The translations under genes and the position numbers were made by a program. Of a stretch of DNA of 64,000 bases, positions 20,446-29,444 are shown piece by piece. How positions within the stretch are numbered: the first letter of the stretch is position 1; the number at the start of each line of letters is the position of its first letter. The DNA comes from Promethearchaeota archaeon. GTDB taxonomy: Archaea > Asgardarchaeota > Lokiarchaeia > Sigyniarchaeales > SOKP01. The DNA lies in NCBI GenBank assembly GCA_016839555.1, contig JAEOUA010000003.1, forward strand, positions 224,001 through 288,000. Reading direction: 5' to 3'. The notes beneath the pieces were generated by a model that was not told the origin of the DNA, searched no databases, and saw only the letters and a program-made list of their open reading frames with translations.

Positions 20446-21750
20446 CTACTTAAAAGGATTCTTACCTCCTAAGATTTTTTCCTGATATTTTTTTAAGGAA
20501 GGAGGACATAGTCCTTTTTCTGTTGCGATTTTTTTAAGGTTTTTCATCATTTCCGCTAAATCAACTCCTGAAGGGCACCAATTAGTACAATTACTACAGC
20601 CAGTGCATAAAAATAATCCATCTTTTACAGCTTCCTCTATTCCATTATGAATATAATCGCGTACGATATTTAGGCCCCCAATACCATATTTAGAAGCATA
20701 GACATTTCCAAAAGCCCGAGAAGCGGTACAAACAAAATCACAAGATTTACAGGAAATACATTTTAACATATCTTTATAGAAAAGATCTTCTTTCGCCGCT
20801 TTAGTTCTCCAATCATCTACTAGAATTACCACAACTTCCTTAGCACCATACATTCCAAAAACTCGAGTGCCTCGAATATCTGAAGTTCCAGAAGGAGCTG
20901 TAATAACACTAATATAACCTGCATCGACGTTTGTAATTCTTTCTTGAATCTTACCCACCATAAATGCATCATATTCATCGGGTACAATCTTTGAAATTCC
21001 CGCTACCACGATATGTTTATCCACGGCTCTTGTCAATAGACTAATGTTTCCTTCATTTTCAAGTAAAAAAATAGTTCCGTCATGAGCAGAAATAGCGTTT
21101 GCGGATGTTAAAGATATTTTTACATCATTAAGTAATTCTGGTCGATAATTCTCTCTATAAAATTGTACAATTTTCTCTGGATCTGGTTCCAGTTCTACTC
21201 CATATTTTTCTTTTATTTTCGCAACGATTTCTTCTTCAGAAAATTGAACACCTGGAGCTAAAGTAAAGCTGGGATATTCATATTCAAATAGTTGACATAG
21301 TACATCTCCAAGATCTGTTTCTTTTATTTCAATATTATTTTCTTTCAAAACATCCATAATTCCAATATCTTTAGCTTCGAGAGATTTTGATTTGTAAATG
21401 ATCTTCGCATCTCCTAATTCTTTCATAAAGGCTTCTTGTGCTTCTTCATTAGTCTTGGCATAATAAACTTTAAATTTATTGGTTTTTTCCATAACATTGA
21501 TACATTTTTCAACATATTCATCTATATTTTCTACAAATTTTTCTTTTGCTTCAATTATAGCTGGTTTATATTTTTCTATATATTCTCTGCTGGTATCTTC
21601 ATATAAATATCGTAAATCATATGATCTATATTTTCCAAGGCAAGCCAATCTCCAAATTTCCGCGAATTTTGCATATTCTGAGTCTTTATCTTTTAGAGCT
21701 TCTATTTTCTGTTGTACATGTTCATATAATTCTTTTCCTTTTTCACTCAT
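20446..21750 (-). CDS. LUD-domain [4Fe-4S] protein (LutB/LldF-like)
   Basis: KSKS, ETDLG, ENEGN, GISKIVP, ITAPS.T.DI, CISCKSCDFVC, CTGCSNCTNWCP. Confidence 0.85.
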   Translation of the reverse strand: MSEKGKELYEHVQQKIEALKDKDSEYAKFAEIWRLACLGKYRSYDLRYLYEDTSREYIEKYKPAIIEAKEKFVENIDEYVEKCINVMEKTNKFKVYYAKTNEEAQEAFMKELGDAKIIYKSKSLEAKDIGIMDVLKENNIEIKETDLGDVLCQLFEYEYPSFTLAPGVQFSEEEIVAKIKEKYGVELEPDPEKIVQFYRENYRPELLNDVKISLTSANAISAHDGTIFLLENEGNISLLTRAVDKHIVVAGISKIVPDEYDAFMVGKIQERITNVDAGYISVITAPSGTSDIRGTRVFGMYGAKEVVVILVDDWRTKAAKEDLFYKDMLKCISCKSCDFVCTASRAFGNVYASKYGIGGLNIVRDYIHNGIEEAVKDGLFLCTGCSNCTNWCPSGVDLAEMMKNLKKIATEKGLCPPSLKKYQEKILGGKNPFK

Positions 21751-22486
21751 TCAAGGGATCAACTCCATTTATTATTTTCATTAGAAAATCTTCAAATTTC
21801 AAAACAGGTTTCTTAATATTATTTTCATTTTTTATTCGTTTAAATGCGGTATAACAAAATGGACAAGCTGTTAGAAGGATTTTACCTCTTCTCATTTGAT
21901 CAAAAATCGTTTTGGTGTTATAATCACTATTTTCTTTAAATATAGAATATACTCCTCCTCCCGATCCGCAACAAATACTATTTAATTTATTGTTTTCCAT
22001 TTCATGAAGTTTTATATTCTTGATTGATTCAATAATTTTCCTAGGTTCGTCTATAATTGGAACAACCGCATTTCGCAGATGGCATCCATCATGATAACAA
22101 ACATACATTTTTTTTCCATCATATTTTAGATTTAATTTGCTTAAATTCTCTGGTTTTGCTAAAAATTGTAATAAATGTTCAACATCCACTTTAAAATTAT
22201 CTCCTAAAAGTTTAGGGTAATATCTTGTTAAATATTGATAACAACCAGCACAAATTGTAGTAATTTTATCTATATCATTTTCTTGAAACCAAGTATTAAC
22301 AAAATCCGCATGTTTTTTCATTTCCTCTTCTTTTGTAATATGGTAAGCGAGAGCGCCACAACATGGAACCTCTTCTAGCACTTCATATTCTTCATCAATT
22401 AAATTTATTAATTTAATACCATTTTCACAGGTATCTTTATATTTTGAGGAGCTGAGACACCCTAAATAAATCAATTTTCTTCCCAT
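21743..22486 (-). CDS. CCG-domain Fe-S protein (LutA/GlcF-like)
   Basis: YLGC, PCCG, CAGC, YHDGCHL, CCGSGGG, TACPFC; overlaps the LUD gene by 8 nt. Confidence 0.85.
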   Translation of the reverse strand: MGRKLIYLGCLSSSKYKDTCENGIKLINLIDEEYEVLEEVPCCGALAYHITKEEEMKKHADFVNTWFQENDIDKITTICAGCYQYLTRYYPKLLGDNFKVDVEHLLQFLAKPENLSKLNLKYDGKKMYVCYHDGCHLRNAVVPIIDEPRKIIESIKNIKLHEMENNKLNSICCGSGGGVYSIFKENSDYNTKTIFDQMRRGKILLTACPFCYTAFKRIKNENNIKKPVLKFEDFLMKIINGVDPLNE

Positions 22487-22868: not shown

Positions 22869-23150
22869 ATTCCAAAATTAATTGAAAATAAAGAAAAAAA
22901 TTTTACTCTTTTCCTCAATAAACAGAGATGTGGGGGATGTAATGCTTGCATATCGTTATGTCCAACTGGAATTCTTGAACAGGGTGAAGAATTAAATGTG
23001 CGTATAGCATATGTCCCTAGAGTTAAAGAGGGAAAAGAGAAATATTGTACTGGTTGCAGAAGATGTGAATTTGGTTGTCCCGATTGGGCAATTTATATAT
23101 TAAAAATTAAAGAAGAAAATCAACAAGAGCCTGAAAAGGCTCAAACATAA
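22869..23150 (+). CDS. 2x[4Fe-4S] ferredoxin, delta subunit of 2-oxoacid:ferredoxin oxidoreductase (absent from ORF track; probable ATT start)
   Basis: Manual translation: IPKLIENKEKNFTLFLNKQRCGGCNACISLCPTGIL...YCTGCRRCEFGCPDWAIYI...EKAQT*; no ATG/GTG/TTG between the upstream in-frame TGA (22860-22862) and the first cluster motif; GGAG at 22855-22858. Confidence 0.88.
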   Translation: MPKLIENKEKNFTLFLNKQRCGGCNACISLCPTGILEQGEELNVRIAYVPRVKEGKEKYCTGCRRCEFGCPDWAIYILKIKEENQQEPEKAQT

Positions 23151-23154
23151 TGAG

Positions 23155-24336
23155 GTGAATAAATTGAGTATTGAAGAAGAGAAGCGATTTTTATCACCTG
23201 GAAAACATTTAATGATGGGGAATGAAGCGATGAGTGAAGGAGCAATAACCGCAGGACTTAAATTTTTCGGGGGATATCCAATCACTCCTAGTACTGAGGT
23301 AATTGAGCATTTGGCTAAACGATTACCGGAAGTAGGTGGATGTTGCATGCAAATGGAGGATGAACTTGCATCAATTAATTCAGTTATAGGAGCATCTCTG
23401 GTTGGGGTAAAGGCTATGACAGCAACTTCTGGTCCTGGATTGTCTTTAATGGCCGAGACTATTTCCATGGCAGCCAATTTAGAGGTTCCCTTTGTATTCT
23501 GTGATGTGCAAAGAAATGGTCCGGGGACTGGTTATGTGACTGAACCACACCATAATGATATTGGATTTATTAGATTTTCAGGTAATGGAGAATTTCAAGT
23601 TATTGCTTTAGCTCCCATGACATGTCAAGAATTATTTGATTTAACAATTACAGCATTTAATTTTGCAGAAACATATCGTTGCCCTGTTTTTATACTCTCC
23701 GATGCCTATTTAGGTCATTTACATGAAGTTGTAAATGTTCCTTCTAAAGAAGAATTGCAAAAAAGAATTATTGAGAGAAAATTGCCAGAAGATACCTCGG
23801 GAAGAATGTTTTCTTATCAAGACAATGTATCGGGTGAATATATAATTCCAAAACCTCCACAAATGGGAACAGAATATTGTCCAGGATTATTTCTTCATCA
23901 ACCACATGGTCCGGACGGATTACCAACCCCAAAACCAATGGAGTTTATACAAGTTATTATGGAGAAAATAAACACAAATAAAGATAAAATATGTCTCATA
24001 GATAAGTATTTGTTAGATGATGCAGAAATAGTTATTATTTCATATGGATTACCTGTGAGAGCAAGCTATCGCGCAGTGGATATTGCCCGAAAGGAAGGAA
24101 TAAAGGTTGGGATTTTTAGATTAATTACTGTATGGCCGTTTCCCGAAGAAAAAGTGAGAGAAATTGTAAAAAATGCAAAAGCTGTAATTGTACCTGAACT
24201 AAATTATACAGGCTATATTGCAGAACAAATAGAAAGAGTCACTAATATTGAAACCCCAGTGATTAAAATTCCGAATGTATGTGAATTTCATCATCCAGAT
24301 CTAATTCTTAAACATATAAAGGAGGTGGCAAAATAA
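23155..24336 (+). CDS. 2-oxoacid:ferredoxin oxidoreductase alpha subunit
   Basis: GNEA, GYPITPSTE, QMEDELAS, TATSGPG.SLMAE; start GTG 23155 or TTG 23164 (after GAGGTGA). Confidence 0.93.
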   Translation: MNKLSIEEEKRFLSPGKHLMMGNEAMSEGAITAGLKFFGGYPITPSTEVIEHLAKRLPEVGGCCMQMEDELASINSVIGASLVGVKAMTATSGPGLSLMAETISMAANLEVPFVFCDVQRNGPGTGYVTEPHHNDIGFIRFSGNGEFQVIALAPMTCQELFDLTITAFNFAETYRCPVFILSDAYLGHLHEVVNVPSKEELQKRIIERKLPEDTSGRMFSYQDNVSGEYIIPKPPQMGTEYCPGLFLHQPHGPDGLPTPKPMEFIQVIMEKINTNKDKICLIDKYLLDDAEIVIISYGLPVRASYRAVDIARKEGIKVGIFRLITVWPFPEEKVREIVKNAKAVIVPELNYTGYIAEQIERVTNIETPVIKIPNVCEFHHPDLILKHIKEVAK

Positions 24337-24337
24337 A

Positions 24338-25261
24338 ATGTCTGGTATAGGTCCAATGTATCCTCAAGAAAAACCAGAACATCCGTATTTAGATAAATCA
24401 TATGCAGGATATTTAATTGGTAATTATTCTTCACGATTTTGTGCAGGATGTGGCTATGGAATTATTGCACAACTCTATACCCGAACCTTTGAAGATGAAG
24501 GATTAGATCCTAAGAAATTTCCTTTAATTGTAGGGATAGGTTGCTATAGTCAGATAATGTTACTGGTCCATTATTCTGCACAGAAGGTTCTAACTTTGCA
24601 TGGTAGAGCACCAGCAATTGCTACTGGGATAAAGATGGGAAATCCAGAAATGAAACCAATCATTTTTTCAGGTGACGGGGATGCATTAGGAATAGGAGGA
24701 AATCATTTCATACATTTATGCAGAAGAAACTTGGATGCTGTTATATTTATTTTTAATAATAGCATATATGCTATGACAGGAGGACAAGGAGCACCTACAA
24801 CGCTTTGGGGAGCAGAGAGTACCACGACTCCCTATAAGATGTTTGAAAATCGTATAGATGGAGTAGATTTAGCACTAGCTGCTGGTGCTACCTATGTTGC
24901 ACGTACTACCGTAGCTCATCCAAGAACATTCATGAAATATTTCAAAAAAGGTTTAAATCATAAAGGTACATCAGTTATTGAAGTTATTGTACCTTGTGTG
25001 ACCTATTTTGGCAGAAAAAATGTCAATACTTTGGGATCTGAATATTCTGAATTACAAGAAGAAGCTGAAAAGATGGAGACCGCAGGAAAGATGATAGATT
25101 GGATAAAGAAAAACACAGTAAGAATAAATCAAGCACAATTTATGACTGAAAAAGAGTTATTTAATAAATATATAATAGGTGAATTTCGTTATGATCCTGA
25201 TAAACCAGAATATTCCGATCAATATAATAGTATTATAAAAATCGCACAAGGAAGGGAATAA
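24338..25261 (+). CDS. 2-oxoacid:ferredoxin oxidoreductase beta subunit (TPP-binding)
   Basis: FCAGCG, GIGC, LHGRA, GDGD...IGGNH, NN..YAMTGGQ. Confidence 0.93.
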   Translation: MSGIGPMYPQEKPEHPYLDKSYAGYLIGNYSSRFCAGCGYGIIAQLYTRTFEDEGLDPKKFPLIVGIGCYSQIMLLVHYSAQKVLTLHGRAPAIATGIKMGNPEMKPIIFSGDGDALGIGGNHFIHLCRRNLDAVIFIFNNSIYAMTGGQGAPTTLWGAESTTTPYKMFENRIDGVDLALAAGATYVARTTVAHPRTFMKYFKKGLNHKGTSVIEVIVPCVTYFGRKNVNTLGSEYSELQEEAEKMETAGKMIDWIKKNTVRINQAQFMTEKELFNKYIIGEFRYDPDKPEYSDQYNSIIKIAQGRE

Positions 25262-25263
25262 AC

Positions 25264-25863
25264 ATGGCGAGATATGAAATTCGTATTGTAGGATTTGGAG
25301 GGCAAGGTGTTATTACATTAAGTAAAATGATAATAACAGCATCTTCTCTTTATGATGGATTAGCCGCAACTCAAACAGAAGCCTATAGCGCTGCCGCAAG
25401 AGGAGGAAAATGTTGGGCAGAAATAGTGGTAGATTTGGACGAAACTCAAAAACTTATTGATTATCCAAAAGCTTTAGAACCTTATGATTTTTTAATCATT
25501 CTCTCAGATGAAGGGGCATCTGATGTAAAGAAAAGTGATTTAAAAAAAGGTAAAAATACAGGATACCTTATTTGGGATACATCAACAATCAAGAAGTTTC
25601 GAACGGCTAAAAGAGTGAAATCTTTTGGTTTTCCAGTTCAAAAAACATCCTTAGAAAAATTTGGTAATACCGTCTTTGGAAATTCCATTCTATTTGGTGC
25701 ATTTACTGCTATTTCAAAAATATTCTCGGAAGATTCAGCTATTAAAACAATTAAGCGTTTTGTACCATCAGGCACACTTGAAACTAATTTAAAAGCGTTT
25801 GAATTAGGAAAAGAAGAAGCAGAAAAATTTCTCATAGAATTAGATGAAAATGGAGGAAAATAA
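25264..25863 (+). CDS. 2-oxoacid:ferredoxin oxidoreductase gamma subunit
   Basis: GFGGQGV, YSAAARGG, NSILFGA, NLKAFELG. Confidence 0.92.
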   Translation: MARYEIRIVGFGGQGVITLSKMIITASSLYDGLAATQTEAYSAAARGGKCWAEIVVDLDETQKLIDYPKALEPYDFLIILSDEGASDVKKSDLKKGKNTGYLIWDTSTIKKFRTAKRVKSFGFPVQKTSLEKFGNTVFGNSILFGAFTAISKIFSEDSAIKTIKRFVPSGTLETNLKAFELGKEEAEKFLIELDENGGK

Positions 25864-25864
25864 A

Positions 25865-27688
25865 ATGTTCTTGAAAAGAATAAAAAAAGGCTGGAAAGAA
25901 TTAGAGACAGAAATAATAGAATCAGGTAAATGTGTTTATTGTGGAGCGTGTGGAGCATTTTGCGCCAATATAAAATTTAATCAGGAGAGGGAGGAACCTT
26001 ATGATGATGGTTCTTGTGAGGAAATGAATACCTGTAGGGATGGTTATGGAGTCTGTTATAATTTATGTCCCAAAACCGGAACTGATATTATCCCTCTGGA
26101 TTTATTGGATAAATGGGTTTTTGAAAAAGAACATGATAAAATTTTAGGTCATTATAAAGATATTTTATCGGTTAAAGTTGAAGATTCTTTTAAACAAAAG
26201 TTTGATGATAACAACGCAGATCCAATAACTGCTCTATTAGCCGTTGCTATGGAAAATAATGAGATCGATTGCGCAATATTAAATAAAACAGATGAATTAT
26301 ATAGACCCGTCCCTTATATAGCAAAGAAAAAGGATGATTTAAAATCGTTTGTAAATAATAACCTAAGTCAAGCACCCACTTTATCTCTGATTGGTGAGGC
26401 AATAAATGAAGGATATGTAAATATTGCTGTTGTTGGAAATCCTTGTCAAATTCAAGGTGTAAGAAAAATTCAAAACCATCCGAGATTTGATTTTGAAGCT
26501 TATGATTTGATTTCTTTAGCCATAGGAACATTTTGTTTTGGAAAATTCCAAAATGAACAATTATCAAAGATTCTTCAAGAACATGATATCGATCGAAAAA
26601 ATATTAGAAAAACAGAAAAAGATGAAAACAATTTCAAAATAAGGATTATTACAAATAATGGAACAAAAGAAATTAGATTGAATCAATTGTATGATAGTTC
26701 CATTCGAAATGCTTGTTTTTCTTGCTCTGATTATACTGCTTCCTTTGCAGATATCTCTGTTGATAGTATTGGAAGTGAAAATGGATGGACCACCGTAATA
26801 ATCAGAACCAAAAAAGGTCAAAGTATTTTTGTTTCTGCAGTAAAGAAAGGATATTTCAAAACAAAAGAGTTGGAGCAAGATAAGAGGGAATTAATATTAG
26901 ATATTACCAGAGCGAGTGTTGATATCGTAGAAATTGAGGATATAATAGAGCATTCCCCCAATATTAAGAGTTTTTGGATCCGAAATCCCCGAATAGCAAA
27001 AGCTTATAGACCAGGAAATTTTGTAATTCTCTGGATACCAGATGTTGATTTCTTGCCAATGTCTATTTCGAATGTTAAAGGAAGTCTTTTAGAAATAACA
27101 GTTGAGAGAATAGGAGAAGGAACCTCAAAATTATTTGATATGAAGAAAGATGATAAACTAGGAATACGAGGACCCTTTGGAAATAGTTGGAATTATGAAG
27201 ATGCTTCAAATATCCTTGTAATTGGAGGAGGATTAGGAGTTCCTGCTCTATCAACGGTGATCCAACCATTAAAATTAAACAATAAGAATGTTTTTGTAGC
27301 TATCGGAGCAAAAAATCAAGCATCATTACTGTTTGAAGAAAGATTTAAAGAATTGATACCAAATACTTTATGTACTACAGATGATGGTTCTGTTGGTAGA
27401 AAATGCTATGTTACCGATCCAATTGAAGAAATAATTGATCAAAATAACATAGATCTCATTTTAACTTGTGGACCAGAAGTTATGATGAAAAAAATATTAG
27501 AAATAGCAAATAGGAAAGGAATTGAAATACAAGCATCATTAGAAAGGAAAATGAAGTGTGGTGTAGGATTATGCGGATCTTGTTGTATAGGAGTGAAAAA
27601 TGATATAACTGTTTGTAAAGATGGTCCTATTTTCAATTCAGAACAATTAAATAGCTTTCCACAATTTGGCACATACAAGAAGGAATAA
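25865..27688 (+). CDS. Fusion of FrhB/FdhB-like (F420 hydrogenase beta) domain and PyrK-like FAD/NAD/[2Fe-2S] electron-transfer domain
   Basis: CVYCGACGAFC, VGNPCQ, IGTFC, ACFSCSDY..ADIS..GW; then RGPFGN, GGGLG, TDDGS, CGPE.MM, CGVGLCGSC, VCKDGP. Start placed at ATG 25865 after GGAGG (track gives 25844). Confidence 0.88.
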   Translation: MFLKRIKKGWKELETEIIESGKCVYCGACGAFCANIKFNQEREEPYDDGSCEEMNTCRDGYGVCYNLCPKTGTDIIPLDLLDKWVFEKEHDKILGHYKDILSVKVEDSFKQKFDDNNADPITALLAVAMENNEIDCAILNKTDELYRPVPYIAKKKDDLKSFVNNNLSQAPTLSLIGEAINEGYVNIAVVGNPCQIQGVRKIQNHPRFDFEAYDLISLAIGTFCFGKFQNEQLSKILQEHDIDRKNIRKTEKDENNFKIRIITNNGTKEIRLNQLYDSSIRNACFSCSDYTASFADISVDSIGSENGWTTVIIRTKKGQSIFVSAVKKGYFKTKELEQDKRELILDITRASVDIVEIEDIIEHSPNIKSFWIRNPRIAKAYRPGNFVILWIPDVDFLPMSISNVKGSLLEITVERIGEGTSKLFDMKKDDKLGIRGPFGNSWNYEDASNILVIGGGLGVPALSTVIQPLKLNNKNVFVAIGAKNQASLLFEERFKELIPNTLCTTDDGSVGRKCYVTDPIEEIIDQNNIDLILTCGPEVMMKKILEIANRKGIEIQASLERKMKCGVGLCGSCCIGVKNDITVCKDGPIFNSEQLNSFPQFGTYKKE

Positions 27689-27958
27689 TTTTTTTTCTTT
27701 ATTTTATTATTAGGTTCAATGATGAGTTTTCCCGAGGGATAATCAAAAACAATCATTTGATAAAGCATTATCAAAAACGTAATAAAATCATCATAATTTA
27801 AATTTATTTAATAATAAAATATGAATTCATGAAAAAAATTGAAAATTATCATTTAAAGATCAAGAAATTAAATTCTTTTAGCCTACCCCGTCAATTTTAA
27901 TAATTCTTAAATATTTCTTAAATTATTATTTCCTAACTTCTAAAAGGAATGAATTATC

Positions 27959-29041
27959 ATGGATGATAATTGGAAAAATGAAATTCCAACTCCTGCTCTT
28001 GTTTTAGACTATAATAAAATGATGGAAAATATTAATACCATGGCTAAATTTGCTAAAGAGCATGATATAAACCATAGACCTCACGTCAAAACTCATAAAT
28101 GTCCTATTATTGCCCATTTGCAATTAAAAGCAGGATGTAAGGGGATTACGGTAGCAAAGGTTGGGGAGGCAGAAGTTTTTGCTCAATCGGGAATTGATGA
28201 CATATTTATAGCGAATCAAGTGATCGTTCCAAATCATATAGATAGATTCGCAAAATTAAATAAATATATAAAAATAAGATGTGCCGTTGATTCTCAAAAA
28301 AATATTCTAGACCTGAGCAAAATAGCAGCTCAAAATAATACTACATTAAAAGTGTTTCTTGATATTAATTTGGGATTAGGCAGATCTGGTGTTGAACCGG
28401 GAGAGCCTGCTCTTGAGATGGCTAGATTTATTGAAAAAACACCAAACATAGATTTAGTAGGCCTCATGGGCTATGAAGGTCATCTTACTCCAATGATGAA
28501 TCTAGATCAAAAAGAAAAAATGGCAAATGAATGTTTCAAAAGGATTGTTGATACCAGGGATTTATTAAACGAAAATGGATTTAATATCAAAAACATTACT
28601 ACATCTGGCTCAGGAACATATAGGTATGCGGCGAATTACGAAGGGATTACTGAGATACGCCCTGGTACTTATGTGTTTTCCGATGAACATTTAGATATGG
28701 TCGAAAAAGCGTTTAAAATTGCAGTAACAATATTAGGTACCATACAAAATCAAACTGGAAAAAAAGAATTTACAACTGATGCTGGTGCTAAAGCAATCGC
28801 GACTGGAGATGGGAAACCTGAATTTAAAGATTTTCCCAAATCTAAAATTAGAGTAATGAATGAAGAGCACACTCAATTTAAGGCAATTGGTCTGGATAAA
28901 AATTTGGAAATAGGACAAAAAATTGAATTTTACCCTGCTCACATATGTACTACTATTAATTTACATGACCATATCCACGTGATAAAGGATAATGAGTATG
29001 TCGGAAGATGGGAAATATTAGCAAGAGGTAAAAGTTATTAA
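27959..29041 (+). CDS. DSD1 / D-threonine aldolase family PLP enzyme (alanine racemase fold)
   Basis: TPAL, RPHVKTHK, GYEGH, EIRPGTYVFSD, NEEH, PAHIC. Confidence 0.88.
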   Translation: MDDNWKNEIPTPALVLDYNKMMENINTMAKFAKEHDINHRPHVKTHKCPIIAHLQLKAGCKGITVAKVGEAEVFAQSGIDDIFIANQVIVPNHIDRFAKLNKYIKIRCAVDSQKNILDLSKIAAQNNTTLKVFLDINLGLGRSGVEPGEPALEMARFIEKTPNIDLVGLMGYEGHLTPMMNLDQKEKMANECFKRIVDTRDLLNENGFNIKNITTSGSGTYRYAANYEGITEIRPGTYVFSDEHLDMVEKAFKIAVTILGTIQNQTGKKEFTTDAGAKAIATGDGKPEFKDFPKSKIRVMNEEHTQFKAIGLDKNLEIGQKIEFYPAHICTTINLHDHIHVIKDNEYVGRWEILARGKSY

Positions 29042-29063
29042 TAAGGGAAGTGTTTTAAAAAAT

Positions 29064-29444
29064 ATGGTAGATATTGAATATGTAAATCCCGGAACTCCGG
29101 TTGCTGGACCTTATACACCTGGAGTCCAAGTAGGAAATCTTCTTTTTGTATCAGGTCAGGGTTCTGCACCAGGCATTGATAATATTAAGGATCAGACTAA
29201 CTCGGTACTTGAAAACATCAAAAAGATTGTTGAGGCTGCTGGATGCAGCGTTGCTGATATCGTAAAAACAACCGTTTTTTTAAGCGATATTAAGGATTTT
29301 GGTAAAATGAACCGAACTTATAAGAAATTTTTTGATAATAATGGTGCTGAAGGAAAATATCCAGCTCGAACAACTATCGAAGTAGCAAGCTTACCTGTTC
29401 CTAGCATGTTAATAGAAATTGACGCAATAGCCGTAATAAAATAA
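29064..29444 (+). CDS. ridA: RidA/Rid family enamine deaminase
   Basis: GPYT, LFVSGQ, IVKTTVFL, YPARTT, IEIDAIA. Confidence 0.9.
   Translation: MVDIEYVNPGTPVAGPYTPGVQVGNLLFVSGQGSAPGIDNIKDQTNSVLENIKKIVEAAGCSVADIVKTTVFLSDIKDFGKMNRTYKKFFDNNGAEGKYPARTTIEVASLPVPSMLIEIDAIAVIK

Follow-up and report, generated by a model that had tools for sequence, protein, structure and literature searches.

A ferredoxin-FrhB-PyrK fusion protein closes a 2-oxoacid:ferredoxin oxidoreductase operon in a Loki-type archaeon and may link it to NAD(P)+

The DNA analysed here (the window) is a stretch of 64,000 nucleotides from a Promethearchaeota archaeon, i.e. positions 224001-288000 of contig C1 of a 3.74 Mb assembly in 12 contigs, with a G+C content of about 30%. 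It contains an operon in the order delta-alpha-beta-gamma-fusion, in which the genes for the subunits of a 2-oxoacid:ferredoxin oxidoreductase (OFOR), including a delta gene upstream of alpha, are followed by a gene for a single chain of 607 residues (the fusion). This protein joins a 2x[4Fe-4S] ferredoxin domain and an FrhB-like domain to a complete PyrK/NfnA-like domain of the kind that carries flavin adenine dinucleotide (FAD), a nicotinamide adenine dinucleotide (NAD) site and a [2Fe-2S] cluster. The frame is open across 25844-27688 on the plus strand, and its start is placed at the ATG at 25865, which matches the ortholog N-terminal consensus MxIxKIKKGWKEL and lies 1 nt past the gamma stop codon (TAA, 25861-25863). 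A preliminary description, made from the sequence alone, had reported this single reading frame and its position 1 nt behind gamma, and the frame, Pfam and the NCBIfam model NF000796 all confirm it; its account of the operon was right in placing the fusion last and incomplete in that it had missed the delta gene (coordinates of all features are collected in Table 1). The T-rich tract that follows the fusion stop codon is likely to be an archaeal terminator ending the operon.

Pfam places FrhB_FdhB_N at residues 121-175 of the fusion with 24.3 bits, little more than the cut-off of 22 (stand-alone homologs reach 83-87 bits), FrhB_FdhB_C at residues 186-338 (130.8 bits), NAD_binding_1 at residues 453-543 and DHODB_Fe-S_bind at residues 560-595. 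The PyrK equivalog NF000796 covers residues 353-606 with 256.1 bits (cut-off 224), and this half matches the solved chains 4ylf_A (138 bits), 5jca_S (121 bits) and 5ksw_B (98 bits), being closest to NAD(H)-binding proteins. For residues 8-349 the best solved relatives are 8riu_B, from an F420-reducing carbon monoxide dehydrogenase (CODH; 185 bits), and 8rja_E, from the F420-reducing formylmethanofuran dehydrogenase (Fwd; 139 bits); the ferredoxin region aligns with residues 1-83, i.e. the ferredoxin domain, of the CODH zeta subunit 8riu_B. An AlphaFold2 model of the fusion (mean predicted local distance difference test score, pLDDT, 73.8; predicted template modelling score, pTM, 0.72) gave Foldseek TM-scores (target) of 0.78 to 8riu_B and 8rja_E for its first half, 0.78-0.79 to the FrhB-type chains 8riu_B, 9r52_B and 4ci0_C, and 0.75 to PyrK and the NfnI small subunit for its second half. 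All eight cysteines of the ferredoxin domain are found in 128 of 128 fusion family members, as are the ligands of the FrhB-like [4Fe-4S] cluster (C194, C224, C284 and C287, corresponding to FrhB C104, C134, C192 and C195); the PyrK-like half has an all-cysteine [2Fe-2S] site (C565, C570, C573 and C584), and these four residues and the GGGxG motif are kept in 127-128 of the 128 sequences, so that all 16 cluster cysteines are retained at that level. In the N-terminal helix, K8, G9, W10, E12, L13 and E16 are invariant in an alignment of 45 rows.

The fusion is neither isolated nor widespread. There are more than 120 full-length homologs of about 605 residues, at 61-85% identity, from independent assemblies, and among 1.84 billion cluster representatives the full-length architecture occurs in only two 50%-identity clusters, both labelled Lokiarchaeota; the other long matches are PyrD-PyrK fusions or unrelated PyrK fusions. 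The public data also hold single-chain PyrD-PyrK and PyrK-PyrD fusions of about 590 residues (P0240, P0168), which are a different kind of PyrK fusion. Across 400 Asgard genomes the fusion is present in 76 of the 134 genomes of the window's family and in all four of a sister family of the same taxonomic order (37-42% identity), and in none of the remaining genomes searched outside these two families. Wherever flanking sequence is available, gamma lies directly 5' of the fusion (21/21 loci, i.e. 17 of the window's family and 4/4 of the sister family), and delta, alpha and beta are present in these loci wherever the contig extends that far. In these loci the fusion is thus paired with OFOR genes and in none of them with pyrD, and the placement of the fusion at the close of the operon, proposed earlier for the window, extends to its relatives. 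Among genomes covered by both searches, the 21 in which an alpha ortholog was found all have the fusion and the 14 in which it was not found all lack it, the sole exception being a fragment at a contig edge. Given this co-occurrence and the constant order, the five genes therefore act as one inherited unit, and the strict co-occurrence, together with the 1-nt spacing, favours a role for the fusion as a dedicated OFOR subunit.

These data also bear on a different proposal, in which the fusion is co-expressed with the OFOR without docking on it and serves as a free-standing ferredoxin:NAD(P)+ oxidoreductase that re-oxidises soluble ferredoxin from this and other enzymes; it corresponds to the first function offered in the preliminary description, minus F420. 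In delta the OFOR possesses a subunit of the kind through which electrons usually leave for soluble ferredoxin, and a search of the genome with the fusion as query found no NfnA/PyrK-like gene besides pyrK, so the cell may need such an enzyme. Nevertheless, one would not expect an enzyme that oxidises ferredoxin in general to come and go in strict step with one OFOR paralog, nor to keep the spacing of 1-17 nt behind gamma that is seen across two families about 40% identical, and in the nearest solved relatives the corresponding N-terminal ferredoxin domain serves as the anchor. We regard an undocked enzyme of this kind as rather unlikely.

Two trivial explanations can be set aside. An assembly artefact, raised as a possibility in the preliminary description, is rejected: beside the more than 120 independent homologs, contigs of two marsh-metagenome studies span both the gamma/fusion junction and the unusual FrhB loops described below. 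A pseudogene is likewise rejected for the window's copy, which has an intact frame and a low ratio of non-synonymous to synonymous change (dN/dS). The rough dN/dS for the fusion gene is 0.08-0.14, with the FrhB_N region fastest; synonymous sites are saturated (proportion of synonymous differences, pS, ~0.7), so these values show only overall purifying selection and, per domain, FrhB_N as the fastest. As separate observations, the operon is split over two short contigs in G135 (C98 and C182) and in G138 (C189 and C95), one contig carrying delta, alpha and the start of beta and the other beta or gamma with the fusion, which is probably assembly fragmentation or strain variation; and in two related genomes the fusion genes (G533:C44:42518-44323 and G534:C77:12544-14349) each contain one in-frame TAG, which could reflect a pseudogene, a sequencing error or something else.

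Hundreds of database entries name the fusion either 'dihydroorotate dehydrogenase electron transfer subunit' or 'F420 hydrogenase subunit beta'. The first name, and the NF000796 score above its cut-off, agree with a role as the PyrK electron-transfer subunit of dihydroorotate dehydrogenase B. The genome, however, has a separate pair, pyrD (C12:72615-73457) and then an adjacent stand-alone pyrK (C12:73547-74347), pyrD is absent from the surroundings of the fusion in all 21 related loci, and the fusion carries 350 extra N-terminal residues. We therefore attach almost no probability to this role: it is refuted by gene context, and by gene context the public label is wrong. The second label is doubtful, given the degenerate F420/FAD loops of the protein. 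The preliminary description had noted that pyrD and subunits of hydrogenase and formate dehydrogenase are absent from the window, and a search of the whole of contig C1 found no pyrD, no NiFe-hydrogenase large subunit gene and no molybdopterin (Fdh-type) gene.

The FrhB-like half combines intact cluster ligands with altered cofactor loops. Cryo-electron microscopy of Frh places FAD among loops 23-30 (with the conserved 24-QDGG at the pyrophosphate), 71-77 and 131-138, the segment G73-T77 (GTKYT, with Lys75-Tyr76) forming the adenine/isoalloxazine loop (PMC3930138); a conserved 163-IGKGK turn and an ADVSTGSVGS stretch lie on the F420 side, and GKGK has been proposed to face the F420 site (PMC3591093). 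The window's protein was compared with five solved FrhB-type chains (3zfs_C, 8riu_B, 8rja_E, 9tn7_A and 9r51_B). Where these have (D/N)GG(I/V)V(T/S) in the first loop, the window has NADPIT, aligning as NN-AD with QDGG; in the second, G(T/S)(K/R/N)Y(T/E), or KSKYT in 9tn7, is replaced by NNNLS; AD(I/V)S(V/T)GS becomes ADISVDS (ADISVDSIGS in full); and the GKGK region reads KDENNF in the window and DKxNF in its family. The erosion of the GG.VT, ADIS.G and TKY/SKY motifs that had been remarked on in the preliminary description is therefore real by comparison with solved structures.

The changes differ in degree between groups. Against the canonical set QDGG, G(T/S)KYT, KGK and ADxSxGSxGS, the window's family has EAGP, GYKPS, DKxN and ADISVGN (ADISVGNxGS), whereas the sister family has GGGA, a second loop that is free to vary (RGTPF, HATAF, MDPCF, RQFQL), a non-canonical third loop and ADISVGVxD. 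The window and its 85%-identical relative depart further, with NADP in the first loop, NNNLS and NDHIS in the second, a third loop that is not canonical and, in the window, D300. The window's substitutions are 118-AD for canonical GG (G119D), 164-NNNL for the family's GYKP, and G300D, where both the family and the canonical proteins have glycine. The same positions are altered in other lineages (GYNPF in P0023; GYEPS and ADISVSD in the P0122 cluster). By contrast, the closest stand-alone FrhB homologs keep QDGG, G(T/S)KYT and KGK, and all three loops are retained by four of the genome's six FrhB paralogs, QDGG or TDGG by five. Coordinates of FrhB-like paralogs (G000) are C10:209784-211888, C10:219303-220214, C10:491059-492036, C12:253068-254051 and C11:137528-138142; two of the six are about 500 residues long with a long N-terminal extension of unknown kind, two are in tandem, and the one on C11 is entirely without the QDGG and GTKY regions.

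The substitutions in the window are concentrated in the pocket. With the loops defined from the literature, its protein differs at 7 of 24 conserved pocket-loop positions and at 15 of 233 elsewhere (Fisher p = 0.0017), a contrast that must be discounted to some extent since the loop positions are adjacent and the test so overstates their independence; the median family member differs at none of the loop positions. Within the loops the substitutions are of a radical kind (G to D, GYKP to NNNL), and outside them they are mostly conservative. From these comparisons the old FAD/F420 pocket of this genome's fusion is very probably non-functional, and that of the fusion family as a whole appears non-canonical and of uncertain use.

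The state of the loops also bears on a dual-outlet scheme, in which an FrhB-bound flavin would reduce F420, as in the CODH zeta subunit and FwdI, whilst the PyrK-like domain reduces NAD(P)+; the complex would then supply both pools or serve in addition as a transhydrogenase between F420H2 and NAD(P)+. Both the FrhB fold and the [4Fe-4S] cluster in it are kept, the closest solved relatives are proven F420 reductases, and the second loop is strictly GYKP in most of the window's family (about 118/126). The biosynthesis genes cofG, cofH, cofD and cofE are in the genome, all above cut-offs, and F420 is therefore available to the cell; a check for cof genes had been suggested in the preliminary description. 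FrhB6 genes of ANME-1 archaea, moreover, cluster with pyruvate:ferredoxin oxidoreductase (PFOR) genes, and F420 reduction has been proposed for them (PMC9012536). However, the QDGG, GTKYT and GKGK loops are canonical in no member of the fusion family, the second loop of the sister family varies freely, and this genome has Asp at the pyrophosphate turn and is without the G, Y, K and P of the second loop. The curated F420 models are also missed by a wide interval (frhB TIGR03289, 161.5 bits against a cut-off of 331.5; FpoF NF040616, 92 bits against 475). We consider a dual outlet unlikely. Of the two functions offered in the preliminary description, that of an F420-reducing domain is thus disfavoured by the degenerate loops, and that of an Fe-S wire fits this genome better.

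On balance we think it more likely than not that the fusion is a dedicated fifth ('epsilon') component of the OFOR and its outlet to NAD(P)+, the FrhB-like half serving mainly as an Fe-S bridge. The protein would take up the low-potential electrons of 2-oxoacid oxidation and deliver hydride to NAD(P)+. Electrons may run from thiamine pyrophosphate (TPP) in beta via the beta [4Fe-4S] cluster to the two [4Fe-4S] clusters of delta, from these to the two of the fusion's ferredoxin domain and on to the FrhB-like [4Fe-4S] cluster, and finally through the [2Fe-2S] cluster and FAD of the PyrK-like domain to NAD(P)+. By analogy with the plug-in subunits of CODH and Fwd, the fusion would dock on the OFOR and bypass free ferredoxin. 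In this genome the FrhB-like domain would be a bridge and scaffold with a degenerate ancestral FAD/F420 site, a function that fits because the FAD/F420 loops are radically substituted while the Fe-S cysteines and the PyrK module are intact. That the fusion docks, in what sequence the clusters follow one another, that the flavin has been lost and that NAD(P)+ is the acceptor we infer from these comparisons; the sequence is compatible with either NAD+ or NADP+.

Several points weigh against an epsilon component of this design. Donation of electrons at -500 mV to NAD(P)+ is wasteful and calls for a physiological rationale, and the presence of the F420 biosynthesis genes leaves a role for F420 conceivable. 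The strict conservation of GYKP in most of the family also argues that the pocket retains some use in those proteins, perhaps by holding a flavin in an alternative manner, so that a purely Fe-S function is the safest reading for this genome and a weaker one for the family. One extension would have the FrhB pocket of the GYKP-type majority hold a second flavin, giving either three-way routing between ferredoxin-level electrons, F420 and NAD(P) or a confurcating machine; the OFOR complex would again be independent of ferredoxin and reduce NAD(P)+, and the window's protein would be a natural variant that has lost the pocket and so reveals the branch that can be dispensed with. We hold this to be decidedly unlikely.

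Less probable still, and in our view a long shot, is Nfn-like confurcation or bifurcation, with a flavin in the FrhB pocket playing the part of the NfnB flavin and coupling ferredoxin-level electrons, NAD(H) and a third carrier, e.g. F420. In outline the fusion does resemble NfnAB, having a PyrK/NfnA-like [2Fe-2S] module beside a [4Fe-4S] module with a possible flavin. However, the pocket required has degenerated in this genome and is changed in several other lineages, the [2Fe-2S] cluster is bound by four Cys in the manner of PyrK and not by an Asp-containing site like that of NfnA, and Pfam detected no NfnB/GltD-like domain in the fusion or the operon (a genome-wide search for nfnB was not made).

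The remaining genes of the operon are those of a four-subunit OFOR, alpha, beta, gamma and delta all being present. Alpha scores 406 bits with NF006412 (2-oxoacid:acceptor oxidoreductase alpha; cut-off 411), and in beta the alignment columns show four invariant cysteines (35, 38, 69 and 220) for the proximal [4Fe-4S] cluster. The first codon of the delta gene is ATT, with no ATG, GTG or TTG ahead of the first Cys motif. In 16 loci a delta ortholog stands directly upstream of alpha, and in 18 aligned rows the homologous first residue is Ile in nine and Met in nine; with no standard start available, this even division therefore makes a non-canonical start likely, and suggests that such an initiation codon is conserved. 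The best models for the substrate of the OFOR are generic 2-oxoacid or Kor-like ones, with scores below the equivalog cut-offs.

Genes on either side of the operon recur elsewhere. The LutB-/LutA-like pair is also found beside the operon in six other loci (L064, L068, L071, L074, L086 and L087) and may link the oxidation of lactate or 2-hydroxyacids to the 2-oxoacid step. The D-serine-dehydratase-like and RidA pair also stands behind the fusion in G138 (L061:6461-7910). D-serine-dehydratase-like enzymes and RidA catalyse 2-oxoacid-forming steps, and a route from D-serine or threonine-type substrates to pyruvate or 2-oxobutyrate would be in keeping with these neighbours. Taken together, the Lut-like pair, the D-serine-dehydratase-like enzyme and RidA suggest that pyruvate or 2-oxobutyrate is a likely substrate of the OFOR.

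Table 1. Features of the OFOR operon and its surroundings (positions within the window).
Feature	Position	Strand	Basis and remarks
LutB-like (LUD + 4Fe-4S) and LutA-like (CCG) gene pair	20446..22486	-	Pfam; divergent from the operon; neighbouring genes outside the enzyme
OFOR delta subunit, 93 aa, two CxxCxxCxxxCP motifs	22869..23150	+	Translation; Pfam Fer4_7 45 bits
OFOR alpha subunit, 393 aa, GTG start	23155..24336	+	POR_N 188 bits, PFOR_II 74 bits
OFOR beta subunit, 307 aa, TPP-binding	24338..25261	+	TPP_enzyme_C 105 bits
OFOR gamma subunit, 199 aa	25264..25863	+	Pfam POR 85 bits; NF006323 124 bits, below cut-off
GGAGG ribosome-binding site	25852..25856	+	Inside the end of gamma, 8 nt before the fusion ATG; read from the sequence
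Fusion residues 1-92, N-terminal helix and dicluster 2x[4Fe-4S] ferredoxin domain	25865..26140	+	C23, C26, C29, C33, C51, C57, C64, C68
Fusion residues 93-347, FrhB-like domain	26141..26905	+	Pfam, alignments to solved chains, family tables, Foldseek
Fusion residues 350-607, PyrK/NfnA-like FAD- and NAD(P)-binding domain, then stop codon	26912..27688	+	NF000796, structure-chain matches, Foldseek
T-rich tract TTTTTTTTCTTTATTTTATTATT	27689..27712	+	Immediately after the fusion stop; read from the sequence
D-serine-dehydratase-like (BhcC-like) pyridoxal phosphate (PLP) enzyme and RidA	27959..29444	+	Pfam, NCBIfam; downstream context

Our literature searches, those of the Asgard literature included, found no description of an FrhB-PyrK fusion; what the window adds is a natural variant of the fusion with an eroded pocket. 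Current models of Loki-type metabolism, and the syntrophy scenarios for the origin of eukaryotes that rest on them, take it that the electrons of 2-oxoacid oxidation go to free ferredoxin and are then got rid of as H2 or formate (PMC7015854). If the fusion does provide an NAD(P)+ outlet, part of the 2-oxoacid flux would be freed from hydrogen transfer and the predicted redox balance of Loki-type archaea would change. It would also add to the GltD-like and P450-reductase-like modules a third means by which an OFOR is coupled to pyridine nucleotides, and would be a case in which the fold of an F420 reductase has been reused as an Fe-S bridge; the combination of OFOR, ferredoxin/FrhB-derived wire and PyrK module would be a build not seen elsewhere, occurring in the Loki-type relatives of eukaryotes. 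The eroded pocket of this genome and the GYKP-type orthologs together offer a ready-made experimental comparison.

Several known systems resemble the protein in part. The closest are the CODH zeta subunit (8RIU chain B) and FwdI (8RJA chain E) of Ca. Ethanoperedens thermophilum, which plug onto their enzymes via the ferredoxin domain and replace free ferredoxin by F420 (PMC11493965). As in the fusion, a 2x[4Fe-4S] ferredoxin domain at the N-terminus leads into an FrhB fold that holds one [4Fe-4S] cluster, and they are encoded with a low-potential oxidoreductase that normally depends on ferredoxin; theirs are seen plugged on, whereas docking of the fusion is proposed. They differ from the fusion in that the (D/N)GG and G(S/T)xY loops are preserved, that FAD is bound and F420 reduced, and that the PyrK module is missing, whilst the fusion has a PyrK/NfnA-like domain, degenerate loops and an OFOR as partner. 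The ANME-1 FrhB6 paralogs, clustered with PFOR genes and proposed to form a direct F420 outlet that bypasses free ferredoxin (PMC9012536), resemble the fusion in being FrhB-family genes conserved in a 2-oxoacid oxidoreductase cluster; as published, however, they are stand-alone, proposed to reduce F420, and no PyrK fusion is reported for them.

The second half of the fusion has its counterparts in PyrK (1EP1, 5KSW) and NfnA (4YLF, 5JCA), which share with it an FNR-like FAD/NAD domain and a C-terminal [2Fe-2S] cluster and hand electrons between the redox centre of a partner and NAD(H). Its four-Cys [2Fe-2S] site is that of PyrK, whereas NfnA (4ylf_A, 5jca_S) has Asp as first ligand. Its partner is neither PyrD, with flavin mononucleotide (FMN), nor NfnB, with FAD and 2x[4Fe-4S]; instead the module stands behind an Fe-S domain and is linked to an OFOR. 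Oxidoreductases for 2-oxoacids that are linked to NAD(P)+ include phenylglyoxylate:NAD+ oxidoreductase (PadEFGHI) and the pyruvate:NADP+ oxidoreductase (PNO) of Euglena, the flavoprotein part of which is P450-reductase-like. A third, the 2-oxoglutarate:NADP+ oxidoreductase (KGOR) of Azoarcus evansii, is cited as using a GltD/NfnB-like flavoprotein part (PMC10134865). All three have in common an OFOR core with an additional flavoprotein part, through which electrons reach NAD(P)+ instead of ferredoxin. Their flavoprotein parts belong to other families, and we know of no FrhB-like bridge or PyrK-type module in any of them. A final parallel is Fsr, a sulfite reductase that depends on F420 (7NP8, 7NPA), in which, as in the fusion, ferredoxin and FrhB domains are joined in a single chain to a second redox module; there the FrhB half carries FAD and does oxidise F420H2, and the partner to which it is fused is a sirohaem sulfite reductase.

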